Assembly (NCBI GenBank): GCA_038206475.1 | Contig: JBBRAU010000001.1 | Span: 141,732 to 205,731 of the forward strand | DNA length: 64,000 bases | Reading direction: 5' to 3' | DNA from: Patescibacteria group bacterium | GTDB taxonomy: Bacteria > Patescibacteriota > UBA1384 > JBBRAU01 | Shown here: piece by piece, positions 33,905 through 59,697 of the stretch | How the letters are laid out: the number at the start of each line of letters is the position of its first letter | Numbering within the stretch: position 1 is the stretch's first letter | Made by a program: the position numbers and the translations under genes | Notes under the pieces: model-generated | What the model was told of the DNA's origin: nothing | The model's database searches: none | What the model saw: the letters and a program-made list of their open reading frames with translations, nothing else

Positions 33905-34507
33905 ATGTTACAACGTGGCGCACTTCCCCGCCCTGGGTTTACTTTGATTGAGCTATTGGTAGTGATTGGTATCATTGCTATTTTAACGGCGCTCTTAGTG
34001 CCGACGATTACTAATGCCCGCAAACGGGCCACAGCCGGCGTGGCAGTTAACCAGTTAGTAAAGAACTGTGAAGCAGCTAAAAATTATTACGTTGGCGGCG
34101 GCGATATTACGCAATACTTCCAAGATATCGATCGCACAGGCTTGCCTGGCTACAATGCATCAACCACAAGTAGTACTGTTGGAGCTGTAAATCAGTCTTT
34201 CGTTCAAGGTGGACCAACAACTGGGTACTCAAATCAGTGGCAGTTATTTTCCTTTGGACCTCCAGCGAACACCTCGATCGCAACAAACTTTCCCAAATCA
34301 GATCAAGCCATTCAGTTGTACGCATACGATTGGACTAGCGGTGCGGCTGACAAATGGTTGCACGCTTACGATGGTTTAACTGTCGGTAGCTACAAGTTAG
34401 GCACAAACCATGCCGCTATTGCATGTGGCCTCTCAGCTGATGCGAGTCAACCCATTCTTTATTATTATTACAATAATGGCGATTCGCCTTGGCCGAAATT
34501 ACCCTAG
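33905..34507 (+). CDS. type IV pilin-like protein (prepilin-type N-terminal cleavage/methylation domain), paralog 1
   Basis: Leader MLQRGALPRPG then [30 protein letters not shown], a class III signal with hydrophobic helix. Variable C-terminal domain. AAAGGAGG lies upstream. Confidence 0.85.
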   Translation: MLQRGALPRPGFTLIELLVVIGIIAILTALLVPTITNARKRATAGVAVNQLVKNCEAAKNYYVGGGDITQYFQDIDRTGLPGYNASTTSSTVGAVNQSFVQGGPTTGYSNQWQLFSFGPPANTSIATNFPKSDQAIQLYAYDWTSGAADKWLHAYDGLTVGSYKLGTNHAAIACGLSADASQPILYYYYNNGDSPWPKLP

Positions 34508-34519
34508 TGTGATTGATTC

Positions 34520-34544
34520 AAAAAGCGCCTGACGGCGCTTTTTG
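34520..34544. terminator. bidirectional rho-independent terminator (pilin gene on plus, tRNA-Lys on minus)
   Basis: aaaaaGCGCCtgacGGCGCttttt. Confidence 0.75.
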
Positions 34545-34558
34545 AATGTCTTCATGCA

Positions 34559-34634
34559 TGGTGGGCCCATTGGGACTTGAACCCAAAACAAACGGCTTAA
34601 AAGGCCGCTGCTCTACCAATTGAGCTATAGGCCC
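34559..34634 (-). tRNA. tRNA-Lys (UUU)
   Basis: Minus-strand fold: GGGCCTA-TA-GCTC-AATTGGTA-GAGC-A-GCGGC-CTTTTAA-GCCGT-TTGTT-TTGGG-TTCAAGT-CCCAA-TGGGCCC-A-CCA. Confidence 0.85.
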
Positions 34635-35032
34635 ATACGATACCCTTTCGGGCCAAATATGTATCGGTAGTAATGAAAAGTTTCGGCGGTGCGGCGGGCA
34701 TGACAATTGGCGCAGTGTACCTCGCATTTAGAAATCTCGCACTCGACACGCTTCCAGCCCGATCCGGTTTGAACCATCCAGCGTATGGCGCGAATTTTTT
34801 GACCTCGGGCATGGTCGAACTGCAACACCGCAGGATCAGATGCTCCACAATCACGGCAAGGGTTTTGTTCCAGATATTGCCAGACGAGGATATTGTTTAT
34901 CTCACGTACCCGATCTCTTCGTGCGCAAGTAACTTTTCGGTGGTGTTCGGCGTTGCGTGCATAGTATGCGCTTGAGCGCGCCCGATTACATTCACGACAA
35001 TGTAGCTGCAGACCGTCTTTTTTTGGTCCGAT
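34625..35032 (-). CDS. HNH endonuclease (complete HNH/Zn-finger core, no canonical start codon in frame; possible pseudogene or non-canonical start)
   Basis: My minus-strand translation is stop-free from ~35040: ...GPKKDGLQLHCRECNRARSSAYYARNAEHHRKVTCARRDRVREINNILVWQYLEQNPCRDCGASDPAVLQFDHARGQKIRAIRWMVQTGSGWKRVECEISKCEVHCANCHARRTAETFHYY*. It carries CxxC...CxxC, FDH and the CANCH HNH motif. The first ATG/GTG/TTG in frame is GTG 34828, downstream of the first Cys pair. ATC at 35032 is the most plausible non-canonical start. The stop lies 10 nt inside tRNA-Lys. Confidence 0.5.
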   Translation of the reverse strand: MGPKKDGLQLHCRECNRARSSAYYARNAEHHRKVTCARRDRVREINNILVWQYLEQNPCRDCGASDPAVLQFDHARGQKIRAIRWMVQTGSGWKRVECEISKCEVHCANCHARRTAETFHYYRYIFGPKGYRMGL

Positions 35033-35194
35033 TACGATTAAATTGCGCGATATCGCATTCAGTTTTGCAGATCACTCAGCGCTTCGTGTCCATATACATA
35101 TTCTAACTTTGTTCGGGTACAAACATATCGATGATTGTTTAATTCACTCCACACGATACCAAAAAAACCGCTTTTACTCAACTTTCTAGCATCG

Positions 35195-36025
35195 CTACCC
35201 GCGAGCAGCGGTAAAGGAATTTAAAATTGCTTGTTGAGCAGTCGGTAAATCGCTCAGAGAGGTATAGCCGTTAAAAGTAATGGCAAGGTAGGCGTCAAGT
35301 GTCTCGAGACAAAAAGTGATTTCATGTGATCCCGTGTGACCATCGCTGGCGGCCATGTTACGGATGGCAATGAGAGCGGGTTGGCCACTAACGGTGGTTT
35401 GGCCGTTGATTTGAAAAGTGCCAGAGTGACTTTTAGTGAGTTCTTCAAGACTGGTTGCAGCGTATGGACTATTTTTCTTTTCAAGACTGATAGCGATATC
35501 GCTATTTTGACCTTCGGAGTTGCCGTTGGCTGTAGACTCTGGACTACCAAGGAAGATGGTGTCAAAAACGACGGTCTTCTTCCATGTGGTTGGATAACTT
35601 ACCCGATACTCGTCGTTTTCGTAGGTGGTCAGCTGCGTAGCATTTGTTGTTGTGGTGGAAGAAGTATAACTAGATGTCGGCGCACTATTAGTTGCACCAG
35701 AATTAGTAGGTTGGCCAGCAGCTGCCCTCCCTGGAGCTACCTTAGGCGTTGCATTATTTGAAGTCGTTTTAGTGCTCTGGAGTGATTTATTTGTGGCGGG
35801 AGTCGCCGCCGATTGCGAGGTGGCGCTGGGGGAGGCGGTAGATGGCTGTAGGCTGACTTTAGTTGTCTGTGACCGAGCGTCAATTCCGGCTGAAAAGCCG
35901 GCTAGGTCGCCTATTACAATAAAACCGACACCAAGCAGGGTCAGCGCCAGATACTTAGCCGGTGCAGCGATCGGGGTGTGGAAACGACCACGGTTGAGCA
36001 CATCAGCATGCATGATTTTAGACAC
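35195..36025 (-). CDS. membrane-anchored secreted protein with Ser/Thr-rich linker; paralog family A
   Basis: N-terminal TM (YLALTLLGVGFIVIG), a ~100-aa S/T/A/N-rich linker, and a C-terminal domain with YPTTWKK and QQAILNSFTAARG matching the 10360 paralog. GTG 36025 has AGAAGGA 5 nt upstream. Confidence 0.6.
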   Translation of the reverse strand: MSKIMHADVLNRGRFHTPIAAPAKYLALTLLGVGFIVIGDLAGFSAGIDARSQTTKVSLQPSTASPSATSQSAATPATNKSLQSTKTTSNNATPKVAPGRAAAGQPTNSGATNSAPTSSYTSSTTTTNATQLTTYENDEYRVSYPTTWKKTVVFDTIFLGSPESTANGNSEGQNSDIAISLEKKNSPYAATSLEELTKSHSGTFQINGQTTVSGQPALIAIRNMAASDGHTGSHEITFCLETLDAYLAITFNGYTSLSDLPTAQQAILNSFTAARG

Positions 36026-36039
36026 GGTAATCCTTCTTT

Positions 36040-36606
36040 TTACTCGCCACGACGGGCGCCAAATATAATGACTGCCAGCGGTGCCAGTAGGAGCACCAGG
36101 TTTTTGTACTGCAGAATAGCTGCGGCAATTTTACTCTGCGCTAGAATTTGGCTGAGCTGTCCGGCCGACATGAACTGCAAAAGCGCGGCAATCAGGAGCA
36201 CAGTAGAGCAAAGCGAGAAAAAGGCTACCTCAAAACTGGACAAACTACTAACGCGTCCGCTTTTTAAACCACTCTTTTGCGCCAACAGAATAATCAGGCC
36301 CACAAACAGGGCTGCCATAATACTGAACGGCGACAGCTTGCCGGCCACATAAACGTGAAAGATGGTACGATCGCCGGCCAAAAAGTCGGTGATTGGTTTA
36401 GACCAGGTTTCAGCCACCAGCAACGCCACGTAGGTGGCAAACAGCGTGGTCACGGCGCGGTCGCGTTGCAACACCAAACCATAGCCAACTCCGACTATCA
36501 GCGAAATGCCGAGAAATAGATCCCAACTGGGCAGACCACCCTCCTTGTCTGTACACCTTCTAGTATGGCGATAGTTTAGGTAATTGGTCAAACGGTGATT
36601 GGCCAA
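36040..36606 (-). CDS. small polytopic membrane protein (CvpA-like, tentative)
   Basis: Four predicted TMs (LFLGISLIVGVGYGLVL, LFATYVALLVAE, IMAALFVGLIILLA, FFSLCSTVLLIAALLQF). Start uncertain: TTG 36606 per the ORF track, and no canonical start follows the AAGGAGG at ~36540. Confidence 0.4.
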   Translation of the reverse strand: MANHRLTNYLNYRHTRRCTDKEGGLPSWDLFLGISLIVGVGYGLVLQRDRAVTTLFATYVALLVAETWSKPITDFLAGDRTIFHVYVAGKLSPFSIMAALFVGLIILLAQKSGLKSGRVSSLSSFEVAFFSLCSTVLLIAALLQFMSAGQLSQILAQSKIAAAILQYKNLVLLLAPLAVIIFGARRGE

Positions 36607-36648
36607 AAGTAGATAAGAGGGTTACCCTGAACAAAAAGAAGGAGAAGA

Positions 36649-37146
36649 ATGCCCAGCATTTCTCATGCTGCACGGCCAGCTTTCACGCTTATCGAGCTGC
36701 TGGTGGTTATTGGCATCATCGCCATTTTAACGGCACTCTTAGTGCCGACGATTACTAATGCCAGAAAACGCAGCCAATTTGGTTCAATCGCAAAAATATT
36801 TACGAACGAATGTGAATCCGCGAAGAATTATCTCGTGGCCGGAGGCAATGGTACAATCTATACGGACTACCAGAACGCACCGTTACCTCAACCTTGGCTT
36901 ATATACCTAGAACAAAGTACGTATTTTGGGCTGTCTGGCAAGGCACCTACTGCTACTTCTTTAACCTTGATTCTTTCCCCCTTTACGACGTTGCCGTTGC
37001 CGGCTGGTTGGAATAATCAGTGGGCGCTTGATGGCATGCGTAACCTGGTGGTTGGACAGTACAAATTAGGTAACGCCTATAGTGCCATGTATTGCTCCGC
37101 AGATAGTGATGCTTCGTCGGCGATTAGTTATGGCCCAACAGCTTAA
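36649..37146 (+). CDS. type IV pilin-like protein, paralog 2
   Basis: [11 protein letters not shown] then [30 protein letters not shown], with a divergent C-terminal domain. Confidence 0.85.
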
Positions 37147-37700
37147 TGGAGGCAAGTACGAATAGCACCAAGTTTTCTCGAGTGCACCGCGGTTTCACGC
37201 TTATCGAGCTGCTGGTGGTTATTGGCATCATCGCCATTTTAACGGCACTCTTAGTGCCGACGATTACTAATGCCAGAAAACGGGCCACCTTTTCTGCAGC
37301 TATGAATGCATTGATTGCTAACTGTGAGCGAGCCAAAGAGTATTACATTAATGGTGGAACTGGACTATTCCCTGATATTGATCGGACTGGATTGCCTGGG
37401 TATAGTGCTACGCGCGGCGTTTATAATAATCAGACTTGGGCAAATTCTCCAAATCCGATAGGCACCCTTGGCCAATCTCCAGATTGGAAGCTGTTCTCCT
37501 ATAACGGAATGGATATATGGCTGTATGCCTACAATGACGAGCAGCAGGTTTATCGGACGCAATACAATAATATTACATACGGCAAGTATCGACTTGGACC
37601 CAGCAACTCCACGGCGGCAAGATGTGTACTCTCAGCTGACGCTAGCGCACCCATTCAGTACGATATGAGAGACGCTAATTCGGCTTGGGTCGCGATGTAG
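37146..37700 (+). CDS. type IV pilin-like protein, paralog 3
   Basis: ...SRVHRG then [30 protein letters not shown]. Start is ATG 37146 (overlapping the upstream stop) or in-frame GTG at ~37182. Confidence 0.85.
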
Positions 37701-37712
37701 CAATGCTACATC
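37694..37712 (+). terminator. palindromic hairpin spanning the paralog-3 pilin stop codon (weak terminator candidate)
   Basis: GATGTAGCAaTGCTACATC, a 9-nt inverted repeat with no T-run. Confidence 0.3.
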
Positions 37713-37734
37713 CACTGTTTGACTGACAATTTGA

Positions 37735-38337
37735 TTATGGACGTAAATTCTTCAGCTGCTCCCAGAGTCGCTTCTCTTCTTTAGAGAGTTTATTGGGAAT
37801 GGTTATGCGGGCGCTGATAATAAGGTCTCCTCGGCCGCGTTGGTGACGGCCACCTTTGCCGCGCAGCACAAACTGCTGGCCGGGTTGAGTGCCAGGCGGA
37901 ATATTCAGCTGCACCGTATCGCCGTCAATATTTAAATTGAGCTGGTCGCCAAGTACGGCCTGGCTGGGGCTGAGCTGTACCTCGGCCTGAATGGTGGAGA
38001 AGGCTTGGCTGAAAAAATCAGAGAAGATGTCGCCAATGCCGCCGCCGAAGCCGCCAATATCGCCAAAGTCTTCTGGACGGAAGCCGCCGCCAAACGGTGA
38101 GCCTTGCTGATTCTGTGCGGTGCTGCCGACGCCGGCCGCTCCGAAGCGGTCGTAGCGGGCCCGTTTTTCCACGTTGGACAGCACTTGGTAGGCTTCGTTA
38201 ATTTGTTTAAATTTTTCGGCTTCACCACCGCCGCGGTCGGGATGGTGCTCAAGGGCCAACTTGCGATAGGCACGCTTAATCTCCTCGGCGGAGGCAGTAT
38301 TAGAGACGCCGAGCGTGGTGTAGTAGTCCATTGGCAT
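37735..38337 (-). CDS. dnaJ: J-domain co-chaperone (DnaJ/CbpA-like, type II: J domain plus G/F region, no zinc finger)
   Basis: J domain DYYTTLGV...[13 protein letters not shown] and a Gly/Phe-rich region ([18 protein letters not shown]). No CxxCxGxG repeats. Last gene of the dnaK operon. Confidence 0.8.
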
Positions 38338-38525
38338 GGGTTGGTGAAAATTATTACTTACCCGTCATTGCGAACGCACCTAGTGCGTGTGGCAATCTTA
38401 AACGAAAGGATTGCTTCGTCGGCTTGTGACCTCCTCGCAATAACGAGGTGGAGGTGGGCTACTCGCTGCGCCTACCAGGTGGCAGGCCAGGCTCGCAGTG
38501 ACGATGGGTAGTGGATGGGTTCGTG

Positions 38526-40433
<1,908 letters not shown>

Positions 40434-41060: not shown

Positions 41061-41068
41061 GCCTGAAT

Positions 41069-41086: not shown

Positions 41087-41112
41087 TTATGTCAACCAAA
41101 TATTGCTCTTAA

Positions 41113-42384
41113 TTGTCTAGACTGAAGTCAATGCTTGCGCTGATCTGCTTGTTGGTTGGGCTACTGCTGCCGGTAGCCGCTTGGCCGCTGCCCTGGTGGT
41201 GCAGTTTGGCCTTCAGTCTTGGCTGGGCCTTTGTTCTGCTAGCTGTATGGCGGCCGCGGGCGGCGGGACTGCTTGTATTCGGCTGCCTGTGGGCTATCGG
41301 TTGGAACATGAGCGTTCAGCCTGCAAGTCAATCGTGGCAGCGCACCGAGACGCTGCGTCTATTGGAACGCCACCAAACCGGCTGGCTCATTGCCGCCCCG
41401 GAAGGGTGGATACTAGCCAAGTCAACCAAGGCTCCTGGTCTGCTGCCCGGACAGTGGTTTACGGCCAGCGTCAGTTGCCGGCCGGCGATACTGTCACCGG
41501 CCCTGCTCGCCGACCGCATTACTGCAAACTGTACGCTACAAGGCATCCGGAACGGTCGCCTGCCTCGCTCGACTGCCTGGCTAAACGTGGTTCGAAACGG
41601 GCTAACACATCAACTGGCCGTGTTTCTCCCCTCCCCGGTGCGCGATTTGACCGCCGGTTTCTTCTTGGGTAACCAAACCGTTAACAATGCCGCCCTCAAG
41701 CGCGACCTGCAGGCTACCGGCACTACTCACCTGATTGCAGTGTCCGGCTACAACTTTCTCATTGTCGTCAGCGTAATGGCACTCCTGTTGCAGCTTTTTC
41801 TAGCGCCGCGACCGGCGACGCTAGCCCTGATACCCATCATGCTAGCTTATGGCGCTATGGCCGGTTTGTCTGGTGCCGTTTGGCGGGCGCTTTTATTCGT
41901 GCTACTCATTCTGCTGGCTCGCCTACTCTACCGGCGACCACCGGGGTGGTGGTTACTGCTGCTGACGCTGACAGTGGCGACGCTCTGGAATCCCTGGATA
42001 CTCCGCACTGACCTGTCATTCCAGCTATCGGCGGCGGCCAGTTTTGGCGTCATTGTGCTGGCGCCAAAAGTTGAGGCGCTTTTGAAGCGAGTTATCAGGT
42101 TTCGGCTTCGGTTGATAAAGCTGCTGACCGCTCAGTTGGCTGAAACCCTCGGAGCGACAATCGCCGTAACGCCTCTTTTGACCTACTACTTTGGTCAGCA
42201 GTCTTGGCTGGCGGTACCGGTTAATTTGCTGGTGGTGCCGCTTGTCCCCTACGCCATGGTGGCCACGTCTGCAGGCTTGATACTGTCGTTGTTGTTGCCG
42301 CTTTGGCCAGGTGCGCCCCATGCTGTTGCCTGGCCACTGCCAGCCTTGATGCTGGGCGTTATCCACCTGGCCGCTCACCTGTGA
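41113..42384 (+). CDS. comEC: ComEC/Rec2-family DNA internalisation channel protein, short form without C-terminal MBL domain
   Basis: Polytopic membrane protein with the competence-domain motif LQATGTTHLIAVSGYNFLIVV. 423 aa. Confidence 0.7.
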   Translation: MSRLKSMLALICLLVGLLLPVAAWPLPWWCSLAFSLGWAFVLLAVWRPRAAGLLVFGCLWAIGWNMSVQPASQSWQRTETLRLLERHQTGWLIAAPEGWILAKSTKAPGLLPGQWFTASVSCRPAILSPALLADRITANCTLQGIRNGRLPRSTAWLNVVRNGLTHQLAVFLPSPVRDLTAGFFLGNQTVNNAALKRDLQATGTTHLIAVSGYNFLIVVSVMALLLQLFLAPRPATLALIPIMLAYGAMAGLSGAVWRALLFVLLILLARLLYRRPPGWWLLLLTLTVATLWNPWILRTDLSFQLSAAASFGVIVLAPKVEALLKRVIRFRLRLIKLLTAQLAETLGATIAVTPLLTYYFGQQSWLAVPVNLLVVPLVPYAMVATSAGLILSLLLPLWPGAPHAVAWPLPALMLGVIHLAAHL

Positions 42385-47237: not shown

Positions 47238-47350
47238 GCCAGCGTTTTTCCTAGTAATTGACAGTGGCATGCAGACCAATAGATACTGTTTTTAGAAGCG
47301 ATTTGTGCGCTCTAGCTGTAACACATAGCGTAATAGAGAAGGATGGACAG

Positions 47351-48586: not shown

Positions 48587-49682
48587 ACTCCTGTGCGGGG
48601 TGGTTCTGCTTGTTGGCATGTGGCCCGCGGTTTTGGTGCATGCGGCTTCACCTAGTCCACTCGCCTCACCGAATATTCCAATTGACCAAACCAGTCAATC
48701 GGCTCAAGGTAATCCGCTCAATTTGACGGTGTCGCCAACAGTATTGACCCTGTCGGCCAAGCCGGGGAACACGTTTTCAACGGACATTCGGGTAAAGAAC
48801 AACGGCATCGCGCCGGAGGCTTTGCGTCTTGGCGTCATTAAATTTGCCGCTAACAATACGAGCGGCGAACCGGTGCTGCAGTCTCGGCAAAAAAATGACG
48901 ACTTTTTGAACTGGGTTAGCTTTTCAGCCCCAGTCTTCTCGGCTCAACCCGGCGAGTGGAAAACCATTACCGCCACCTTCAAGTTGCCCACCACCGCCGC
49001 ATTTGGTTATTACTATGCCATTGTTGTGACTAGGCAGAGCCAGCCGATTGATACCGGCAGCCGCCAGATTGGCGTGATTGGCGCGCCGTCGCTGTTGGTG
49101 CTTTTAGCGGTTGAAGCGCCCGGCGCCAAACGCGAAGCCCAGATGGCGAGCTTTTACGCCTCGCGCCAGTGGTATGAGTTCTTGCCGGCTCAGTTTTCGG
49201 TCGAGATTCAGAATAGTGGCAACGTGCACGTGGCGCCACACGGCGATATTTTTGTGAGCCGCGGCGGCCAAGATGGAGCCGACGGTGGCCGCGACATTGC
49301 AACCTTGCCCATCAATGATGATCAGGGTCAAATTCTGCCGAGTTCAAAACGAACATTTCAGGCTAGCTGGACCGCCGGCTTCCCCAGATTTGAGCCACGA
49401 CAGGTTGATGGTCAACCGGTGCTGGACAAGCAGGGCAATCTCAAAATGCACCTGGTGTGGCACTGGAACGATATTGGCCAATTCCGGTTTGGTCGCTACA
49501 CCGCGCATTTAACGCTTGTCTATGACAACGGCAATCAGGATGTGCCAATTGAGGCCACGCTTAATTTCTGGATCATCCCCTGGCGCCTCTTGCTGGCCGC
49601 CGTGTTTATTGCGGCCGGGCTGATTTGGAGTCTATTCTCGCTACTGCGCCGTTTCAAGCGACTCTTCCGCCACGCCGACTAA
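48540..49682 (+). CDS. cell-surface protein with CscA-like architecture (signal peptide, ~280-aa beta-rich ectodomain, C-terminal TM plus basic tail; DUF916/DUF3324-like)
   Basis: Signal LLCGVVLLVGMWPAVLVHA, a beta-rich ectodomain, C-terminal TM WRLLLAAVFIAAGLIWSLFSLL then RRFKRLFRHAD. The architecture is that of the DUF916/DUF3324 partners of WxL proteins in Firmicutes csc loci. The ectodomain itself was not matched to a known motif. Confidence 0.45.
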   Translation: MTTPTPGRLSVRRRSKLLCGVVLLVGMWPAVLVHAASPSPLASPNIPIDQTSQSAQGNPLNLTVSPTVLTLSAKPGNTFSTDIRVKNNGIAPEALRLGVIKFAANNTSGEPVLQSRQKNDDFLNWVSFSAPVFSAQPGEWKTITATFKLPTTAAFGYYYAIVVTRQSQPIDTGSRQIGVIGAPSLLVLLAVEAPGAKREAQMASFYASRQWYEFLPAQFSVEIQNSGNVHVAPHGDIFVSRGGQDGADGGRDIATLPINDDQGQILPSSKRTFQASWTAGFPRFEPRQVDGQPVLDKQGNLKMHLVWHWNDIGQFRFGRYTAHLTLVYDNGNQDVPIEATLNFWIIPWRLLLAAVFIAAGLIWSLFSLLRRFKRLFRHAD

Positions 49683-49700
49683 ATATGCGACAGTAGCGTT

Positions 49701-50615
49701 ATGCGACGACTTCTGCTTTTTTTGGTGCCCCTTTTGGCATGGCCCGCTACTGCCCAGGCTGCCGGCAATGGCGGCTTGGTGCTGTCGCCGGCTTATCAAG
49801 AGGTCAGTTTAGAGACAGGCGTGAGTGCCAAGCGTGTTGTTTTGACGCTGACCAACCAAGCCCAGTCGACAGCAAACCTCAATGTCTCGGCAGTTGATTT
49901 TGGCAACCTCGACAATCATGGTGGTCTGGCCTTCGCCGGTCAACCCGGCATTACGCTCGACAACAGCCATTTGCTGGTTAATTGGCTCGCCTTTGACCGA
50001 ACGACGGTACAAATTAACCCAGGCAAAAGCCAACAACTGACAGTCAGTATCAACAACCGCGATGATCTCACCGCCGGTGGCCATTATGCCGCGGTCTTTC
50101 TCACCGCGTCGGGCAACTATGGCAGCGCCACGCTCAGTTTCACGCCGGCTCTGGCCACCTTGCTCTATGTCAATAAAGTAGGCGCCAGCCAAGTTGGTCT
50201 GGAGCTGCAGTCGATGGCCACAAACTCCGGTTGGAGAACGGTGCCTAGCCAGTTAACGCTTAACTTTCACAATACCGGTGGAATTCACCTAAAGCCGCGC
50301 GGGACTGTTGAGTTAACCGACCCACTTGGCCACCTCTCTAGCCGCGGCATCATCAATGAATCCTCAGCCATTATTCTGCCAGCAGCGGTCCGCCACTACT
50401 CGGTGACGCTGCTCAGTCGGCGTCGCCCCATCTGGCCTGGCCGCTACACCCTCTCGGTGCACTACCGCTACGACGGCCGAGACGACACGACAACCGTCAC
50501 CCGAAGCATTTGGTACCTTGGTTCAGTTGGGCTGGCGGGTCTAGGTCTGGTCGGGGTAGTTTTTATCATAATAATTGTAAGACTAAAGAGAAATAGGTAC
50601 AGGCGTACACTATAA
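49701..50615 (+). CDS. second CscA-like cell-surface protein (signal peptide, beta-rich ectodomain, C-terminal TM plus basic tail)
   Basis: Signal LLLFLVPLLAWPATAQA. C-terminal TM LGSVGLAGLGLVGVVFIIIIV then RLKRNRYRRTL. Confidence 0.45.
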   Translation: MRRLLLFLVPLLAWPATAQAAGNGGLVLSPAYQEVSLETGVSAKRVVLTLTNQAQSTANLNVSAVDFGNLDNHGGLAFAGQPGITLDNSHLLVNWLAFDRTTVQINPGKSQQLTVSINNRDDLTAGGHYAAVFLTASGNYGSATLSFTPALATLLYVNKVGASQVGLELQSMATNSGWRTVPSQLTLNFHNTGGIHLKPRGTVELTDPLGHLSSRGIINESSAIILPAAVRHYSVTLLSRRRPIWPGRYTLSVHYRYDGRDDTTTVTRSIWYLGSVGLAGLGLVGVVFIIIIVRLKRNRYRRTL

Positions 50616-50706: not shown

Positions 50707-53700
50707 ATGGGTAAACTCTTATCGCGGCTATGGGCAAGCGTATTACTCGCAACCATTGTTGTGAGTGTTTCTGGCGTCGCAACCGTCCCAACCGCCCAGG
50801 CAGCCGCCGGTATTCTGCATCAAATTAATTTTCAAGGCAAAGTTGTTAAATCTGACGGCACCAATGTCGCCAACGGCAGCTACGCCTTTGTTTTTAAGCT
50901 CTACGATAATTCGGCTGCCGGAACTCAGCTCGGCAATACGGAAACCCAAAGCCTAACCGTTACCGACGGCATCTTCCGCACAACGTTTTCGGATACGGCC
51001 GCAACTGGCCTACTCGAGAACGTTAATTTTAATTCTGACTCGCTCTACCTCGGGGTTAATTTCAACGGCGACGGCGAAATGACGCCGCGAGTGCGCTTTA
51101 CCTCAGTCCCCTACGCTTTCAATGCCGAGAAGGTAAACGGCCTAGCCGTGACCAATAATGCCGGCAATCCGCTGGCGGCGGGCTCAGCGCTCAAATTGCC
51201 AGACGGAAAAATAGTCGAATTTTCTGGCAGCAATAACCTAACCCTAACGACGACCGGGAATACGGTCGCGACCTTGCCGTCCGGCACGATCACCCTGGCC
51301 GACTTGAGCAGCACACAAGTCTTTAGCGGTGCCAAAACGTTTTCAGACTTGACCGTCTCCGACACCAACATCGCCCTGTCTGGTGCCTCAACCATCTTCA
51401 CCGGCACCGGAGCAATAACAGTCACGCCGGGCGGCGGCGGTGCTTTGAGCTTAAACTCGGCCGGAACCGGCAATACTGCTATTGGCAATGGCACCGGTAC
51501 CTTCCAACTCGACTCAAATACGCTTGACATCTCAACCGCCGGTGCCTTAAGTGGTGTCACCGGTATTGCCAGCTCCGGCGCCTACACCCAAACCGGTGTC
51601 AGCGCCAACACTTTCTCTGGGGCGACCACCTTCTCGGCGGCTGGTACGGCTGTATCGGTCACCAACGATGTTGGCATCGGCGGCGTTCTCCAAGTTGGTT
51701 CAACCACACCAACCACTTACTCCAGGCTCGGCACCAATACCACTGGTCATTCGCTTGGCGCGGCCTCAGACTTATTGGTCTCGGGCAATATTGAAGTTGA
51801 TGGCTCAGCCTTCTTTGACGGCACCGTGAGCTATGGCGGTGGTGCCAACTTTACGTTGACCACCAGCGCAAACAACATAACAACCGTTGCCGTTTCAACC
51901 ACCCAAACCGCAACCGGCGCCTTAACCGCCTCAACTGGTCTGTCCAGTCTCTGGCAGAGCAGTGCCGTAGTGGCTGGTGTTGGCGTTAGTCAAACCGCCT
52001 ACGGTAACTACACCACGGCTACTAAAACCGGGGCTGACACCGCTACCGGCACTTACAGCCTGTATGGCGATTACGCCAGCGTCAGCAATACCGGCTCGAC
52101 GAACGCCGGTACCAAAAATACTTACGGCGCGGCCTACTCGGCCACTGGCGATACGGCTGGTGCCTCAACTGCAACCGGACTGACAGTGACCGCCTCTGGT
52201 GCTGACACCAATCGTGGCCTTGAGATAACCGGCCCCACCTCAGCCGCCAACAACTATGCCCTGTACTCATCAGCCGCCGCTCAGTCGGTCATGGCTGGCA
52301 ACTTGCGGATTGGCTCAACTACCGCGCCAAACGTGGCACTGGATGTCACCGGCGCCGGCACCTTCTCTTCAACGCTGACGGCTTCAAATGGTCTCACGGT
52401 TTCAGCTGGTGGTGCCACGGTCGGTGGCAGCTCAACCGTCACTGGCACTTTGGGCATTTCTTCCTATCTCCAGGTTGGCTCGGTCACTGGTACCACCTAT
52501 TCGCGACTGGGCACGGGAGCAACTAACCACAGTCTGGCTGGCGCTGACAGTTTATTTGTCACTGGCAACTTGGAGGTTGACGGGTCGACCTATTACGATG
52601 GTGGCGTCACCTACGGCTCTGGCACCACCTATGACTCAACCGTCACCTTCAACTCCGATGTAGACTACGCCTTGGCTGGCACTGAAAACGTGACAATCAA
52701 CAATAGTAGCTACTCGACGCCATCAGCTGGCCTGCTCGATATTGCCGCAACTAGCAGCACAGATGACGTTCGCGTATTGCAAGCGGCGCTTACCTACTCT
52801 GCCACAGGGGCCGCGACTGGCTACACCAGCCGCAGCAGTTTTGCTAGCTCAGCCGTAGTGGCCGGAGCCGGCGTTTCCCAAACCGGCTATGCCAATTACA
52901 ACACCGCCACAAAAACCGGAGCAGATACGGCTACCGGCACCTATACGCTTTATGGTAGCTACAATACCGCTTCTAATACTGGCTCATCAGCCGGGACGAA
53001 AGTGACTATCGGCGGCGCCTTTACCGCTGTCGGTGATACTGGCGGCACCTCAACCGCCAAAGGCCTTACCGTCACTGCCTCAGGCGCCGATACCAACTAC
53101 GGTATTGAAATTACCGGTCCAACCTCGGCTACCAATAACTATGCCATCTACTCCAGTGCGGCGGCGCAATCGGCCATTGCTGGCAACGTGCGGGTTGGCT
53201 CAACCACGGCGCCTACGGTGGCATTAGATGTCACCGGCGCGGGATTGATTTCCTCAACCTTAGGCGTTTCTTCGACACTGACGGCCTCTAATGGTTTCAT
53301 CCAAACCACCGGCGCATTGAGTTTGACAGCTAGCTCTGGCTCATCGGCCATTACCCAAAGTGTTTTTGCCATTACTTCAACAGTCACCTCGGGCAACGGC
53401 TTCTCGGTGGCCTCGTCAACGGTTGACTCAGGCAACGTGGTGAGTCTCAATTCAACCAGCACGGCTGCCGCCTCTAACTCCCAAACCGTCTTAAACGTCG
53501 CCACCTCCGGCGCCAACGGTGCCTCAACTCAAACCACCTATGGCGCCAAAATTGCTAACACGCACACTGGCACTTCTTCCACTAATGTTGGTGGCTACTT
53601 CAGCGCCTCCGGCGGCACCAACAACTATGCCGCTATTTTTGACCAAGGCAATGTTGGTGTTGGCAACCCCACACCTTCACAGGCACTGAGCGTGACAGGG

Positions 53701-56700
53701 AGAGTTGCCATTGCTCCAAGCGGTACTGTCTCTGATGAACAGTACAACGGCAATTTGGTTATCACTAAACCAGTGTCCAGTGGACAGTACGTTAACCTAA
53801 TACGAGCTGGCACCTATGGATGGTCCCTGGGCTACGCCTACAACACCAGTACTTTCGCTATAGGCACTATTCAGGGAATAGACTCCAACTTTACTGCCCC
53901 TGCGCTGCAACTAGGAGCAAATGGAAACTTAACCATAACCGGATCCGTAACTGGCACTCAGTTAGTCTCGAATATTGCCACTGGCACCGCGCCCTTGCTC
54001 ATTACCTCAACCACCGTTGTGCCAAACCTTAACGTCTCACAGTTACTTGGTTCCACCTGGGCCGCCCCCGGGGCCATAGGTTCCACCACTCCCAACACCG
54101 GTGCTTTCACCACCCTGACCACCACCGGTACCATTAACTCCCAGGCCATCTCAGCCACCGCCGCCTTAACCGGCACCCTCTCCGTTGCCTCCACCTTAAC
54201 TGCCTCCAGTGGCTTGACTCAGACCACGGGAGCGCTCAATTTAACCGCCACCAGCGGCGCGCTGGCTATCTCTGGCTTAACCTCCGCCGCCCTGGCCACC
54301 GCCGCCTTAACCTTAAACACCACCGGTACTGGTACCACTCAAATTGGCAATGGCACCGGTACCTTCCAACTCGACTCAAATACGCTTGACATCTCAACGG
54401 CCGGTGCCTTAAGTGGTGTCACCGGTATTGCCAGCTCCGGCGCCTACACCCAAACCGGTGTCAGCGCCAATACCCTCACCGGCGCAACCTCCCTCACTGC
54501 CGCCGGCACCGCCCTTGCCGTTACCAACAACGCCACGATCGGCGGTACACTGACTGTTGGCGCCGTCTCGTCTGCCTCTGGTGCCGGTATTTTTGATTCG
54601 CTGAGCGTGGGTGGCGGTTACGGTTCAACCGGCGTCAGTATCTCGAATACCGGCAATATCCAAGCCAATGGCACGCTTACGGTGGATTCGACAATCGGCA
54701 TTGGTGGCGCTCCAGCGAGCTCAGCCGGGCTGCTGACCACCGGTGCTATCACCGCCACCACCAGTCAGTATGGCGTTGAGGCGGCCAACACCTTTAGCTC
54801 AGCGGCCACCACCGGTGCCAGCTTCTACGCTCTACCGCAGACGGCGGCAGCGGCTTATACCGTCACCAGTCTGTATAATTACCTCGCCTCTAATGCCAGC
54901 CTTGGCGTGGGCAGTGCTGTCACTAACCAATATGGTTTCTACAGCCCCGACTTAACTAGCGGCAGTAATAACTACGGTTTCTATGCCAATATTTCCTCGG
55001 GGACTAATAAATACGCCTTCTATGGTGGCGGCAATGCCCCGAGTTACTTTGGCGGCAACGTCGGTATTGGCACCGCGTCACCGAGTAACAAACTAACCAC
55101 TGTAGACACTGCAGGCGGTGTTCTTTGGCCAGGCATTCGTATCAAGAATGCCGCCAATTCCGTCAATACTGGTGCGGCCATAGAATTCAGTGTCCTGAAC
55201 GGTAGCAATGCGGAAACGGTGATGGGTCAGATAGGCGCCGCAGTTAACTCGGGGACGGCTGGTAGCGAGTTTGGTTACCTTACATTTCGGGCCAGTGTAG
55301 GTGGTACGCCGACAGAGGTGCTTCGTGTCTGGCCGGGGGCTGCGAGTACTACCCAGACCTCTATTACGCAAAGCACCGGTTCATCAGGACTGAATGTCAT
55401 CATTCCCTCCTATGTTGCAAATTCATACACCCCCGGCCTCTTCTGGAGCACGGCGGATAACAATCCATCAAAGCCGAAGGCGGGCATTTATACTCAGCTT
55501 ACGGCAACGGGGACCTATCTTTTGCTGGGCACTTCAAATTCATATGCAACAGGCATTACCAGCAACGTTATTATCGATCCAACCGGCAATGTCACTGGCG
55601 GCACCTACAACGGCCAGACCATCTCCAGTGCCGCCAGTTTCACCGGCACGGTTGGGGTGGCCAACTCGGTCACCGCACCAACGGTTAACGTTGGCACCGC
55701 CGGTGCTTCAACCGGAGTACTCAACCTGTCAGGGGCGACCTCTGGTACCATCTCCATCAAAGGTCAGGCCGCCGCTGGCAGCTACAACTTTAACTTACCA
55801 ACCACGGTTGGTTCTTCCGGTTTCGTGCTTACTTCAGCGGGCGGGGGAGTCACCGCCATGACCTGGACTGATCCGGCTGGTCTGACGGCAGGGACTGCCA
55901 CCAGCGTGCTCTTCTCCGGTGTGCAAGCCGCCACCAACACCGGCCAGGCACTGCTGGTTGGTAATGGCTCCTCATTAGGTGTGACCGGCACCGGCACCAT
56001 CAACGCCACCACCCTGCTTGGTTCTACTTGGGCTATCCCCGGGGCCATAGGTTCCACCACTCCCAACACCGGTGCTTTCACTACGGTCGCTTCAACCGGT
56101 ATTGCCTCATCGGGTAGCTATACCCAGACCGGAAGCGGTGCCAATACGTTCACTGGCGCCTCATCATTCACTGCCGCCGGTACGGCGCTAACAGTTAATA
56201 ATAGTGCTCAGATTTCCGGTGTAGTGGGGGTGGGTGGTGCTACTTATTCAAGTACGGGTCTAATCATCAGAAACACAAACTTAGCAACCGCTGATCAATA
56301 TGGTGCCTATATTTCGCCCACCTTTAACTCTTCTGCTACTCACGGAGCCGGCGGCGTTGTGTCTTCCCCCTCTACTAGTGCAGCTGCGTTTACGATTCCC
56401 ATACTCTATGACTACTATGCAGGCATTGTTTCAATTGGTGCTGGAAGCAGCGTCACTACTCAGTATGGCTACTTTGCGGAAGACCTGACTGGTGCCACCA
56501 ATAGCTACGGATACTTCAGTAACATGTCCTCGGGGGCTAATAAGTACGCTTTCTATGGGGCAGGGACGGCGGCTAGCGTCTTTCTGGGCAATGTTGGTGT
56601 TGGCACCAGCGGACCTTTGGCCAAACTACATGTCTCATCGGGCGACAGTGCAGTAATTAGCTTAGTTTCAGGTGTTAGCAAGGGTATCCGCTTTGGTGCT

Positions 56701-58923
56701 AACTCCTCGACGGCCATCATTAATGGTGTTGATAACACTGGTACAGGTTCATATCAGCCCCTGTCGCTTGGCGGTTCTGAGTTGCGGTTCAACAACTCCG
56801 CCGTGGAAGTGGCCAGGCTTAATTCCAGTGGTAATCTGGGCGTTGGTGCTACGACCACTATTTCCGCTCGGCTGCACTCTCTTGCCACCACCGAGCAGCT
56901 GCGCTTGGGCTATGATGCCGCCAACTACGCCGCCTTTACCGTCTCCTCCGGCGGCAACCTGACGCTGGCACCAACTGGCGGCACGACGAACGCTGCGGGT
57001 GCCCTGGCCGTGACTACTTCAATTACCGCACCAACCCTCTACGGCGGTGCTGCCTCCGGCGGCAATCTCACCCTCTCCTCTACCAGCAACGCTACGAAGG
57101 GTAAATTACTGATGGGCGGCTCTGCCTTTGTGGAATCAGCTAACCAGCTTGGCCTTGGCACTACCGCCCCAGACGCAAAGCTATCTATCGCCATAGCTCA
57201 GGCAGGTACCCAGTACATTCAGGGCCAGTTTGCCGGAACCAATACCGCTTCCGATCTTGGTAAGTTCCGGGTAGGTGGGGGCGAGATTGGTACTGGCGGC
57301 GTTGACCGGGCCTACCTTGAGGTGCGCCAGACCTGGAACGGTGCTACTACTGATACTGAACTAGGCCTCTATTCCACCAAGGGCGGGATTGGCGGCGGCG
57401 AGCGGCTGACAGTGCTGGGGAGCGGAAACGTCGGTATCGGTAATACTAACCCTGCCGCCTTACTCAGCGTGGGTAGCGGCGACAAATTACAAGTAGGCGC
57501 AACCGGCAACCTCAAACTCACCAACGTCACCACCGGCTCCAACACCAGTTCCCCCACCATCAACTTGGAAGGCAACGGCTTCACCGCTGGCCCCACCAAC
57601 ACCACCGGCTCCTTCTCCATGCAGACCATCCCCAGCAGTGCCACGGCTGCCAAGCTGATGATCGCCGTTACTGGCTTTGCCACCCAGAACGTTGCCTCAC
57701 TGACTGAAGCCGGTGCCTGGATTACCAAAGGCGCCCAAACCGCTAGCGGTACGCCGGACGTAGCTGAGTTTATTGGCACCACGGCCGAAGTGACTGCCGG
57801 AGACGTGGTAGTAGCGGCCGCTGGCCAGAACGGCAACGAGAACTTTGTAGCCACCCGCAACAGTGTACGCGGCAACCCCAGCGTCATTGGCGCCATTGCC
57901 GACGGTACCTCCGGCGTGCAGATCAATTCGTACGGCCAGTACAACGACTTCACCAATGGCACGCTCAGCAATAAGGGCAAACCGATGACTATTGCCGGCC
58001 GTATTCCGGTCAAGGTGACAACCCGCGGCGGCAGCCAACCCATTCTCCGTGGCGACCTCCTTATGGCCTCCGACAAGCCCGGTTACGCCGAGAAGTATGA
58101 TCCCGCCTCCGGCCCTTTGGTCGGCATCATCGGCGTTGCTCTAGACGAATTGCCTGCGGGCGACGGTAAGGTTTTTGCCCAGATCCAAATCTCTCGTGTC
58201 AGCGCTTCTCAGGCGCTTCTCGGCACAGCGCAGGATCTCGGTATCACTACGCTTACTGTTTCCAGCTCAGCTCTGTTCAAAGGAGACTTGAACGTGATTG
58301 GCAATGTGACGATCGGCGGCAGTTTGACTATTGGTAGCTCAAGTACGTCTAAGCTGGTTTTTAGGGTGCTTGGTCAGTCGCAATTTGGCAGCGACACCGA
58401 CAACCTGGCGATTAGTGAAAAGGGCCAGCTAACCCGCCATGGCCAGGCCACCACTAACCAGACTTTAGAGAACCTAGGCAAAGTGAGTGCAGCCAGCCCA
58501 ACCAATGTTTTGCCGCTGACTACGCTAATAGGCGCGGCTACTATTTCGTCTAGCCTGAGCCAGCCTGATGTGCCGCGCAACGTAACCTTGACAGCCATCG
58601 GCCTACGCGGCCTGGTCACGGTCAAGGGCATCTTGGCCGACAGCACCGAGGCGAGTGAGCAATTTAATGTCGTGGCTGACGGAATGATGCTTGGTCAAAA
58701 AGCCTTCCTGTCCATTAATAACGTGTCGGTGCCGGGTGCTGGGCAAATAAGTCTGGGTACTGGCCAAAAGCTGGGTCTGTCTAATAGTTTGCACGGTCAA
58801 AATGGTGTCTACTTGACACAAAAAGACGCCGCCCGAGTTACAGCGCAAGTGGATAGCCAAAACAGCACCGTTGACCTGGGACCATTAAATGGTGAAGCCA
58901 TTAAAATTTGGTACCGCTACTAA
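50707..58923 (+). CDS. giant secreted repeat protein (2738 aa) with tail-fibre-like Gly/Thr/Ser/Ala-rich beta repeats
   Basis: Signal peptide MGKLLSRLWASVLLATIVVSVSGVATVPTAQA. Repeated modules NNYA(I/L)YSSAAAQS..AGN.R.GSTTAP.VALDVTGAG and NKYAFYG.G.A.S.F.GNVG(I/V)GT..P..KL.V. Large internal duplications: near-identical ~130-bp DNA at 51481-51610 and 54346-54478, and ~85-bp at 54041-54125 and 56021-56100. No C-terminal TM or LPXTG. Confidence 0.75.
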   Translation: MGKLLSRLWASVLLATIVVSVSGVATVPTAQAAAGILHQINFQGKVVKSDGTNVANGSYAFVFKLYDNSAAGTQLGNTETQSLTVTDGIFRTTFSDTAATGLLENVNFNSDSLYLGVNFNGDGEMTPRVRFTSVPYAFNAEKVNGLAVTNNAGNPLAAGSALKLPDGKIVEFSGSNNLTLTTTGNTVATLPSGTITLADLSSTQVFSGAKTFSDLTVSDTNIALSGASTIFTGTGAITVTPGGGGALSLNSAGTGNTAIGNGTGTFQLDSNTLDISTAGALSGVTGIASSGAYTQTGVSANTFSGATTFSAAGTAVSVTNDVGIGGVLQVGSTTPTTYSRLGTNTTGHSLGAASDLLVSGNIEVDGSAFFDGTVSYGGGANFTLTTSANNITTVAVSTTQTATGALTASTGLSSLWQSSAVVAGVGVSQTAYGNYTTATKTGADTATGTYSLYGDYASVSNTGSTNAGTKNTYGAAYSATGDTAGASTATGLTVTASGADTNRGLEITGPTSAANNYALYSSAAAQSVMAGNLRIGSTTAPNVALDVTGAGTFSSTLTASNGLTVSAGGATVGGSSTVTGTLGISSYLQVGSVTGTTYSRLGTGATNHSLAGADSLFVTGNLEVDGSTYYDGGVTYGSGTTYDSTVTFNSDVDYALAGTENVTINNSSYSTPSAGLLDIAATSSTDDVRVLQAALTYSATGAATGYTSRSSFASSAVVAGAGVSQTGYANYNTATKTGADTATGTYTLYGSYNTASNTGSSAGTKVTIGGAFTAVGDTGGTSTAKGLTVTASGADTNYGIEITGPTSATNNYAIYSSAAAQSAIAGNVRVGSTTAPTVALDVTGAGLISSTLGVSSTLTASNGFIQTTGALSLTASSGSSAITQSVFAITSTVTSGNGFSVASSTVDSGNVVSLNSTSTAAASNSQTVLNVATSGANGASTQTTYGAKIANTHTGTSSTNVGGYFSASGGTNNYAAIFDQGNVGVGNPTPSQALSVTGRVAIAPSGTVSDEQYNGNLVITKPVSSGQYVNLIRAGTYGWSLGYAYNTSTFAIGTIQGIDSNFTAPALQLGANGNLTITGSVTGTQLVSNIATGTAPLLITSTTVVPNLNVSQLLGSTWAAPGAIGSTTPNTGAFTTLTTTGTINSQAISATAALTGTLSVASTLTASSGLTQTTGALNLTATSGALAISGLTSAALATAALTLNTTGTGTTQIGNGTGTFQLDSNTLDISTAGALSGVTGIASSGAYTQTGVSANTLTGATSLTAAGTALAVTNNATIGGTLTVGAVSSASGAGIFDSLSVGGGYGSTGVSISNTGNIQANGTLTVDSTIGIGGAPASSAGLLTTGAITATTSQYGVEAANTFSSAATTGASFYALPQTAAAAYTVTSLYNYLASNASLGVGSAVTNQYGFYSPDLTSGSNNYGFYANISSGTNKYAFYGGGNAPSYFGGNVGIGTASPSNKLTTVDTAGGVLWPGIRIKNAANSVNTGAAIEFSVLNGSNAETVMGQIGAAVNSGTAGSEFGYLTFRASVGGTPTEVLRVWPGAASTTQTSITQSTGSSGLNVIIPSYVANSYTPGLFWSTADNNPSKPKAGIYTQLTATGTYLLLGTSNSYATGITSNVIIDPTGNVTGGTYNGQTISSAASFTGTVGVANSVTAPTVNVGTAGASTGVLNLSGATSGTISIKGQAAAGSYNFNLPTTVGSSGFVLTSAGGGVTAMTWTDPAGLTAGTATSVLFSGVQAATNTGQALLVGNGSSLGVTGTGTINATTLLGSTWAIPGAIGSTTPNTGAFTTVASTGIASSGSYTQTGSGANTFTGASSFTAAGTALTVNNSAQISGVVGVGGATYSSTGLIIRNTNLATADQYGAYISPTFNSSATHGAGGVVSSPSTSAAAFTIPILYDYYAGIVSIGAGSSVTTQYGYFAEDLTGATNSYGYFSNMSSGANKYAFYGAGTAASVFLGNVGVGTSGPLAKLHVSSGDSAVISLVSGVSKGIRFGANSSTAIINGVDNTGTGSYQPLSLGGSELRFNNSAVEVARLNSSGNLGVGATTTISARLHSLATTEQLRLGYDAANYAAFTVSSGGNLTLAPTGGTTNAAGALAVTTSITAPTLYGGAASGGNLTLSSTSNATKGKLLMGGSAFVESANQLGLGTTAPDAKLSIAIAQAGTQYIQGQFAGTNTASDLGKFRVGGGEIGTGGVDRAYLEVRQTWNGATTDTELGLYSTKGGIGGGERLTVLGSGNVGIGNTNPAALLSVGSGDKLQVGATGNLKLTNVTTGSNTSSPTINLEGNGFTAGPTNTTGSFSMQTIPSSATAAKLMIAVTGFATQNVASLTEAGAWITKGAQTASGTPDVAEFIGTTAEVTAGDVVVAAAGQNGNENFVATRNSVRGNPSVIGAIADGTSGVQINSYGQYNDFTNGTLSNKGKPMTIAGRIPVKVTTRGGSQPILRGDLLMASDKPGYAEKYDPASGPLVGIIGVALDELPAGDGKVFAQIQISRVSASQALLGTAQDLGITTLTVSSSALFKGDLNVIGNVTIGGSLTIGSSSTSKLVFRVLGQSQFGSDTDNLAISEKGQLTRHGQATTNQTLENLGKVSAASPTNVLPLTTLIGAATISSSLSQPDVPRNVTLTAIGLRGLVTVKGILADSTEASEQFNVVADGMMLGQKAFLSINNVSVPGAGQISLGTGQKLGLSNSLHGQNGVYLTQKDAARVTAQVDSQNSTVDLGPLNGEAIKIWYRY

Positions 58924-59154
58924 CCATTATCTTTCGTAATCACATGTGGTGATGGGTAGGCATTGCTTCGCTTCGCTCAAGCGATGGGTCGAGTTTATAC
59001 CAATGCACGGAGTGGCCCCACCCCATGTCATTGCGCGCAGCAAAGCGACGAAGTAATCTCACCATTGACGTTCTGGGCCTTACAAACTCCCAGCCGCTTG
59101 CCTATCAGCCAATACATAGACAGACTAAACGCGCATAATACAAAAAGGAGACAC

Positions 59155-59697
59155 GTGTTCAAGCAGCAAAAGCTCGGTTTTACCTTAATTGAGCTGTTAG
59201 TGGTGATTGGCATTATCGCCATCCTGACCGCTCTTTTGGTGCCGACCATTACCAACGCCCGCAAGCGCTCGACGGTCAGCAAAGTGGTTGATGTGTTGGA
59301 GCGCGAGTGCCAGGCCGCCAAAAATTATATGGTCGGTGGTGGCACAGCCAACAGCTATGCTTCAACGCTGGTAGATCGTAGCGGTTTACCTGGCCCGAAC
59401 GCAGTAGCTGGTGCAACCAACTACTGGGCGCTTGGCAGTGTCACTTCGGCGAATTACGGCGGCAGTTTTTCGGCATTGCCCGCCCCCGGCGCCACAACTC
59501 CGCTGGCAATTGGGCTTTCATGGCAACGGGACAGCGCTACCATTGGTACTGGCTACAACGATATAGCGATCGGTCGAACTCGCCTTGGGAAATATGGTGC
59601 AGGGTTGTACTGTGTGACCGATGCCGATGCCTCAGCACCCATTCGATACTATGCCGTTGACAGCACCACTACTGCCACCCTCCTCTATTCCGGCTGA
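59155..59697 (+). CDS. type IV pilin-like protein, paralog 4
   Basis: AAAAGGAG 4 nt before GTG 59155 gives MFKQQKLG then [30 protein letters not shown]. The ORF track extends upstream to 58963. Confidence 0.85.
   Translation: MFKQQKLGFTLIELLVVIGIIAILTALLVPTITNARKRSTVSKVVDVLERECQAAKNYMVGGGTANSYASTLVDRSGLPGPNAVAGATNYWALGSVTSANYGGSFSALPAPGATTPLAIGLSWQRDSATIGTGYNDIAIGRTRLGKYGAGLYCVTDADASAPIRYYAVDSTTTATLLYSG

Follow-up and report, generated by a model that had tools for sequence, protein, structure and literature searches.

We report a family of type IV pilin genes in the 64-kb stretch of contig JBBRAU010000001.1 analyzed here, the whole of which is referred to as the window. Four of its genes, designated pil1 to pil4 from left to right, are predicted to be complete genes for type IV (T4a-like) pilin paralogs, and their products share an identical segment of 30 residues – the cassette – directly behind the leader peptide, followed by globular heads. 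They probably represent a lineage-specific expansion of major-pilin-like genes in which the first 30 mature residues are fixed by purifying selection while the heads diversify, with local conversion of the cassette between copies. The presence of four pilins with a common stem is real but fairly ordinary, and selection for fit with one pilus machine, rather than pilin switching, provides the best explanation for it.

The four open reading frames (ORFs) lie on the plus strand and begin at positions 33905, 36649, 37146 and 59155, as originally predicted from the sequence, and all four translations carry the same 30 residues immediately after leaders of 11, 11, 16 and 8 residues respectively. A six-frame scan of the 64 kb finds exactly four copies of the prepilin motif. 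Each of the leaders, 8–16 residues long, contains Arg or Lys and is followed by Phe at +1, Glu at +5, and a hydrophobic helix; the cleavage site reads G/FTLIE in pil1, pil3 and pil4, and A/FTLIE (ARPA/FTLIE, with the Ala codon at 36679-36681) in pil2. All four products match the Pfam N_methyl model (PF07963) at 24.1–32 bits (cut-off 21.2; pil1 29.6, pil2 24.1, pil4 30) and TIGR02532 at 24.5–30.7 bits (cut-off 16.3), and their earlier designation as type IV pilin paralogs with a common N-terminal segment is thereby upheld. Each copy has a start codon, a leader, and either its own Shine-Dalgarno sequence or translational coupling: pil1 has AAAGGAGG 5 nt upstream of its ATG, pil2 has GAAGGAG, and pil4 has AAAGGAG preceding a GTG start that sits within a longer TTG-initiated ORF, 232 nt downstream of a gene encoding a 2738-residue protein. 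The one-base overlap reported between the two tandem copies is present as TAATG (...GCT TAA TGG...), and pil3 is translationally coupled to pil2. Scans for promoters and terminators gave counts no higher than in shuffled sequence, the sole site noted being a weakly supported promoter-like one upstream of pil1 (33853-33881), and a search of the whole window against Rfam identified four tRNAs only, none of the pilin genes being preceded by a riboswitch or leader RNA.

The DNA encoding the cassette had been described as nearly identical in all four genes. This is the case for pil2 and pil3, whose coding cassettes differ at 1 of 90 nucleotides, and for codons 15–27 of pil1, which match those of pil2 and pil3 but for one base, but it does not extend to pil4, whose cassette is 74–77% identical to the other three and differs from them at 21–23 positions. 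Over its full length the pil1 cassette differs from those of pil2 and pil3 at 15–16 of 90 nucleotides, nearly all of them within codons 1–14. A fifth copy, in a related pilin designated P0006 and described below, is 19–23 nucleotides apart from pil1, pil2 and pil3 and 15 from pil4, and every nucleotide difference among the five copies is synonymous. As a null expectation we took two copies of the same peptide with codons drawn independently from the housekeeping codon usage of the window, which predicts 21.1 +/- 2.9 differences per 90 nt. Seven of the ten cassette pairs were judged saturated at synonymous sites, and their likeness at the DNA level is therefore no greater than protein identity forces; because most pairs are saturated, the identity of the amino acids reflects purifying selection and not DNA homogenization. 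Codon sharing at those head residues on which paralogs agree served as an internal control. The same codon is used at 17–42% of such head residues, and within the cassette at 30–40% of residues in the saturated pairs, 50% between pil4 and P0006, 53–57% between pil1 and either pil2 or pil3, and 97% between pil2 and pil3.

Superimposed on this selection is a signal of exchange between neighboring copies. The pil2 and pil3 genes use identical codons at 29 of 30 cassette positions versus 8 of 33 (24%) identical head residues, a degree of cassette codon identity with P < 2e-5 under independent codon choice, and the two share a 90-nt tract of 100% identity that is flanked by unrelated leaders and by heads only 32% identical. 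Between pil1 and these two genes there is a run of nine identical codons, for which codon-usage nulls give P of approximately 4e-4 to 7e-4 per pair, and a permutation test that allows for their overall similarity gives 0.012. The 39-mer cited in the original prediction, which allows a or g at one position, occurs three times in the window (in pil1, pil2 and pil3) without mismatches to that pattern and with a chance expectation of none, and is absent from pil4 even when three mismatches are allowed. Grouping by cassette places pil2 with pil3, whereas grouping by heads places pil1 with pil3 and with P0005, a further relative; such incongruence is a signature of gene conversion or partial duplication. 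We infer that gene conversion gave rise to the identical tracts, both the 90 nt shared by pil2 and pil3 and the approximately 39 nt that pil1 shares with them. Neighboring copies would occasionally convert each other here, as no other stretch is alike enough for recombination; exchange is detectable within the cassette only, with none in the heads, and conversion is a by-product of proximity and homology rather than a head-switching device. The earlier proposal of gene conversion is thus supported for the cassettes of neighboring copies but not for the variable 3' domains to which it had been applied.

Nor are those C-terminal domains unrelated, as had been supposed. Heads from which the cassette has been removed find each other in tblastn searches with E values of 5e-5 to 1e-21 (pil1–pil3, 5e-21; pil1–pil4, 3e-11; pil2–pil4, 3e-11; pil1–pil2, 5e-5), and are 31–47% identical (24–47% in the overall range given for the paralogs); they share two invariant Cys residues, an invariant Trp and Pro, and the motifs C(E/Q)xAKxY (AKNY), GG, LPG, GxxxLG and DASxPIxY, all of which indicates that the heads are homologous. 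An AlphaFold2 model of the pil1 product, built from an alignment of nine sequences (predicted local distance difference test score [pLDDT] 80; predicted template modeling score 0.74), has a continuous helix at residues 14–63 followed by six beta-strands, a predicted topology that is the lollipop of pilins. When the family sequence profile is compared with the PDB, the best match is the Thermus thermophilus PilA 6xxd (E 1.3e-13, profile positions 12–112), followed by geopilins, PpdD, and Neisseria and Pseudomonas pilins, all of them major pilins.

The family is small. Nine full-length members were recovered by a word-indexed search of 5.8 billion proteins, and when 1.84 billion representatives were searched exhaustively with HMMER the same nine alone reached E <= 1e-30; the next match stands at E 6.6e-21 and covers only the N-terminal helix, and the remainder are weaker and likewise N-terminal. 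A contig search with the pilin alignment returned, among the matches listed, N-terminal similarity only (generic FTLIELLV and VIGIIAILT) in Planctomycetota, Verrucomicrobiota and similar phyla. Besides pil1 to pil4, the members are P0005 (193 residues, with a long head) and P0006 (139 residues), both with the identical cassette, and P0007, P0008 and P0009 (138–144 residues), which come from other samples and whose cassettes are altered, for example from AIL to AVL and from PTIT to PVIT. P0006 is encoded on a contig (L002) from Sequence Read Archive (SRA) run SRR19962014, and the same run holds a contig 100% identical to positions 30844-34617 of the window. P0005 and P0006 probably belong to the genome of the window, because of this shared run (for P0006), because NCBI contigs are available for both, and because the cassette is identical; the number of cassette copies would then rise from the four in the window to at least five or six genome-wide. 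No prepilin peptidase, assembly platform or ATPase was found among the ORFs scanned in the 64 kb, and of the pilC and pilD genes whose presence had been proposed as a check, none is in the window, while the end of PilC and a PilD are encoded on L002, presumably within the same genome. In contigs from groundwater, the orthologue P0008 is encoded behind a T2SSE ATPase and PilC. Since P0006 and P0008 both sit beside genes for pilus machinery, the short form is machinery-linked and presumably the major pilin, and comparison of the sequences shows the window genes to be paralogs of it whose heads are enlarged by insertions. We note that on L002 the N-termini of the two other pilin-like proteins encoded near pilD, FTLIELMVVMGIIAVL and YTLVELLVVLGIMAG, have clearly diverged.

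The expansion that we favor could have proceeded and could operate as follows. All paralogs would derive from one ancestral short pilin, of which P0006, encoded between pilC and pilD, would be the present-day counterpart. Each paralog would be made as a prepilin and cut after its leader by a single prepilin peptidase, and the hydrophobic alpha1-N helix would anchor the mature protein in the membrane until a single PilB/PilC machine pulls it out to join the filament, in which the alpha1-N helices of neighboring subunits pack together. The stem would be frozen over 30 residues because all paralogs need the same PilD, the same PilC/PilB platform, and the same filament core. The heads, having diverged and been enlarged by insertions, would provide alternative or co-polymerizing subunits with different surfaces, with which an episymbiont might, for example, attach to its host, move or take up DNA, and short conversions between close copies would homogenize cassette DNA on top of selection. 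Processing, co-assembly and functional diversification of the paralogs are here proposed from sequence.

Several points weigh against this interpretation. The Ala that replaces the canonical Gly at –1 in pil2 may reduce or alter cleavage by PilD. The GC content at third codon positions is lower in pil1, pil2 and pil3 (0.43–0.48) than in lepA and pil4 (0.59), which may reflect a different history and makes the codon null a little less secure for pairs among these three genes. The conversion tracts are real and show that recombination acts here, such that rare chimeric or deletion variants are possible. The assignment of P0005 and P0006 to the same genome as the window is probable rather than certain. 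Finally, a Foldseek search of the PDB with the pil1 model gave no significant match (best E 0.8) and no assignable structural class, and the pilin fold of the head is consequently drawn only from its topology and from sequence-profile similarity.

An alternative explanation, close to that originally offered, is recombination-driven pilin variation, in which the 5' cassette acts as a homology anchor and heads are swapped, or copies fused or deleted, so as to produce antigenic, phase or host-range variation. The identical 90-nt direct repeats of pil2 and pil3, 512 bp apart, the 39 nt that they have in common with pil1 at a distance of 2.7 kb, the high divergence of the heads, and the incongruent groupings of cassettes and heads, which point to past non-reciprocal exchange, are all compatible with it. 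Exchange is nonetheless seen inside the cassette alone, and in a repeat search of the window the 90-nt cassette is the sole DNA repeat common to the pilin genes; there is therefore no homology block 3' of the heads with which to bracket their exchange. Searches by tblastn with cassette-less heads found no truncated or silent head copies in the 64-kb window, where every copy has its own translation signals; neither strand contains a G-quadruplex (G4) motif of the form (G3+N1-7)x4, and the ORFs scanned include no recombinase or invertase domain. Moreover, pil4 and P0006 are synonymously saturated relative to pil1, pil2 and pil3, and because the cassettes are present only as direct repeats, with none inverted and all four genes on the same strand, a crossover would delete rather than switch. 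We regard this mechanism as very unlikely, and the antigenic variation and exchangeable tips of the original prediction are not borne out by copies that are complete and directly oriented, without silent partners, 3' homology or a G4 element.

We also consider it unlikely that pil1 to pil4 encode minor pilins, forming the tip or priming complex of one pilus, instead of major-pilin-like alternatives. Their products (165–200 residues) are larger than the 139-residue P0006 encoded next to pilC, the more elaborate pilins of the Saccharibacterium TM7x are its minor ones (PMC11623550), and there are weak NCBIfam matches to GspH and ComGD/ComGE, which involve the N-terminus only. But they have the same stem as the presumed major pilin and heads homologous to its head, the best profile matches in the PDB are major pilins, and the genes stand apart from one another between housekeeping genes and form no minor-pilin operon; it is the pilin-like genes by pilD on L002 that have diverged N-termini instead. 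Far less probable still is a role as pseudopilins of a competence (Com-type) or type II secretion-like pseudopilus, serving a nearby ComEC-like channel in DNA uptake. The ComEC-like gene reported 3.4 kb from pil3 is real, as its PF03772 match attests, and Candidate Phyla Radiation (CPR) bacteria are said, in work of Wang et al. from 2023, to be naturally transformable. The dnaJ-dnaK-grpE genes on the opposite strand lie between pil3 and the ComEC-like gene, however, which consequently shows no operon link to pil3, and the weak matches to GspG, ComGC and ComGE that might favor such a role fall far below cut-off (best GspG 36.5 bits against 88.85; best ComGC 30.7 against 75) and are confined to the N-terminal helix. 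The related short pilin sits in a PilB/PilC/PilD context, and since T4a pili normally serve in DNA uptake anyway, this would hardly be a separate mechanism.

Returning to the lineage-specific expansion under purifying selection, it can be extended into a more speculative proposal: that the frozen stem and local conversion together constitute a concerted-evolution device that keeps at least six interchangeable heads compatible with one minimal pilus machine. An obligate episymbiont might then change its pilus surface or host specificity by differential expression, with occasional crossovers in the cassette generating leader/head chimeras or deleting copies, a pilin 'wardrobe' distinct from the systems of Neisseria and Moraxella. 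We think it distinctly improbable that this describes the system.

The features discussed are collected in Table 1. The source organism is, on the evidence of its LepA, a divergent member of the CPR/Patescibacteria, the best named relatives of that protein being from Candidatus Doudnabacteria, the 'Patescibacteria group' and Saccharimonadales (57–62% identity). Planctomycete DUF1559-type pilin-like proteins, which share the N-terminus, were considered and are rejected on account of this placement by LepA and the absence of a PF07596 domain. The window is ordinary chromosome, with ftsH, murJ, polA, pnp, RNase J, CTP synthase, lepA, dnaKJ-grpE, yebC, ruvC and glycosyltransferase genes. Its GC content dips at 34000-38000 to 0.485–0.49, compared with about 0.55 elsewhere, and within the dip are two minus-strand membrane or secreted ORFs with no assigned family; this stretch could be a small variable island. 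The tRNA-Lys gene noted earlier in the pilin neighborhood is indeed present, on the minus strand, whereas the HNH endonuclease noted with it is a short ORF with an HNH-like motif and without Pfam support. A prophage or island origin for pil1, pil2 and pil3, suggested by the GC dip, the tRNA-Lys and this fragment, was considered, but no integrase or phage gene was seen.

Table 1. Coordinates of pilin genes, cassette tracts and neighboring features in the 64-kb window, with one contig from elsewhere (aa, amino acids; nt, nucleotides; TM, transmembrane)
Feature	Coordinates	Strand	Description
pil1	33905..34507	+	Complete prepilin gene, 200 aa; leader MLQRGALPRPG (11 aa), then FTLIE
Cassette copy, pil1	33938..34027	+	90 nt encoding the shared 30 aa; differs from pil2 at 16 nt, pil3 at 15, pil4 at 21, P0006 at 19
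39-nt sub-tract	33980..34018 (pil1), 36724-36762 (pil2), 37236-37274 (pil3)	+	1 difference; possible older or shorter conversion tract
tRNA-Lys	34559-34634	-	
67-aa ORF	34625-34828	-	CxxCH-like (HNH-like) motif; no Pfam match at E <= 0.01
pil2	36649..37146	+	Complete prepilin gene, 165 aa; leader 11 aa; Ala at -1
Cassette tract, pil2	36681..36770	+	90 nt, 100% identical to 37193-37282; repeat family D1; inferred gene-conversion tract
pil3	37146..37700	+	Complete prepilin gene, 184 aa; leader 16 aa; N_methyl 32 bits
Cassette tract, pil3	37193..37282	+	Partner of 36681-36770
ComEC-like gene	41113-42384		Competence domain, PF03772, E 2e-36
Secreted protein, 356 aa	46167-47237		Weak NCBIfam match, 'CPR-type pilus protein PamT'
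Secreted protein, 442 aa	47258-48586		C-terminal domain in common with the 356-aa protein, ending TPAADDYTD(S/T)(L/W)T
Paralogous pair, 380 and 304 aa	48540-49682, 49701-50615		Signal peptide and C-terminal TM helix
2738-aa ORF	50707-58923		N-terminal signal/TM segment; G/T/S/A-rich; internal DNA repeats D2, D3, D5, D8; no Pfam match
pil4	59155..59697	+	Complete prepilin gene, 180 aa; GTG start; leader (M)FKQQKLG (8 aa)
Cassette copy, pil4	59179..59268	+	Same 30 aa; 21-23 synonymous differences from pil1, pil2 and pil3
L002 (Logan SRR19962014 contig)	1-3570		Order: C-terminal end of PilC, P0006, PilD (A24_N_bact and Peptidase_A24), 208-aa and 288-aa pilin-like proteins

Upstream of pil4 there is a Pam-like/WxL-like donor-strand pilus locus (46167-50615), which is a system separate from the type IV pilins. 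Pam pili of CPR bacteria assemble by donor-strand exchange with membrane-anchored PapD-like chaperones, PamC and PamD (bioRxiv 10.64898/2026.03.03.709456), and an AlphaFold2 model of the 304-residue protein of this locus (pLDDT 87) matches Enterococcus WxLIP and the chaperone-usher chaperones CfaA, FimC, Caf1M and CsuC at E 6e-10 to 1e-8, such that the modeled fold fits a correspondence of the 380- and 304-residue pair to PamC and PamD. Searches of PDB sequences with the 356- and 442-residue Pam-like proteins found nothing. The 2738-residue repeat protein may be the 'tail fibre-like protein' reported beside pam operons (bioRxiv 10.64898/2026.03.03.709456). Another large surface protein is probably encoded at 26232-28985; its 917 residues include a lamin-tail domain (LTD, below the Pfam cut-off) and fibronectin-III. 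Just downstream of pil4, a GT4 glycosyltransferase gene is flanked by toxin-antitoxin-like genes, an AbiEii nucleotidyltransferase-domain ORF (60046-60711, plus strand) and a Fic/DOC ORF (62039-62425, minus strand). Among the tRNA genes, a tRNA-Ile with anticodon UAU (tat; 24743-24818) represents an uncommon bacterial way of reading AUA, and two divergent tRNA-Met (CAT) genes lie about 245 nt apart at 31422-31820, between the CTP synthase gene and lepA.

CPR/Patescibacteria live attached to other microbes, and the chief means known by which they attach to hosts, move and take up DNA are type IV pili. The genes described here provide a clean natural case in which selection divides the two halves of a pilin, with 30 unchanged residues at synonymous saturation beside heads that are about 30% identical. 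They document a very rare, lineage-specific head family rather than a new mechanism of variation, and their practical value lies in offering candidate host-recognition subunits from an uncultured lineage. They also recommend caution, in that identical peptide cassettes need not mean homogenization at the DNA level.

Several known systems invite comparison. In Neisseria, the silent pilS copies have neither a promoter nor the coding region for the conserved N-terminus, and conversion replaces the variable head of pilE by way of homology blocks within and 3' of the head, with a G4 element required. The window resembles this in having multiple pilin-related sequences in one genome and detectable gene conversion, but each of its copies is a complete gene, conversion is seen in the conserved N-terminal segment alone, and there is neither 3' homology nor a G4 motif. 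The tfpQ/tfpI system of Moraxella, which uses inverted alternative segments and a site-specific invertase (Piv), likewise combines a constant N-terminal pilin segment with alternative heads; the copies here, in contrast, are direct, each with its own N-terminal segment, and no invertase gene is present among the ORFs scanned. Closer in arrangement are the tandem major-pilin paralogs PilE1/PilE2 of Streptococcus sanguinis and PilAI/PilAII of Pseudomonas stutzeri, which are adjacent and co-transcribed and have a common N-terminus. The adjacent pil2 and pil3, with their common N-terminus, are similarly arranged, whereas their heads are only 32% identical and those of the other two pairs much more alike.

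Thermus thermophilus makes two pilus forms in one bacterium from two pilins, PilA4 and PilA5 (PMC7203116; PDB 6XXD). It shares with the system described here the possession of more than one major-type pilin per cell, and its PilA (6xxd) is the best solved relative of the family profile, although there are two pilins there and five to six putative pilin paralogs here. In the Saccharibacteria, Nanosynbacter lyticus TM7x has PilA1, PilA2 and minor pilins in four loci, and in the group as a whole several pilin loci are dispersed, the major pilins encoded with the machinery are small, and heads diversify behind N-terminal features that are conserved (PMC11623550). The expansion favored here agrees with this picture and with the use of more than one pilin type by T. 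thermophilus. The paralogs of the window differ from those of TM7x in being homologous throughout with 30 identical N-terminal mature residues, and they have no detectable sequence kinship to TM7x pilins beyond the N-terminus, the family having nine members in public data. Both organisms are CPR bacteria in which several complete pilin genes are scattered in a small genome, with a small pilin at the machinery locus, and in both the globular domains diverge behind a conserved N-terminal helix and PilD signal.

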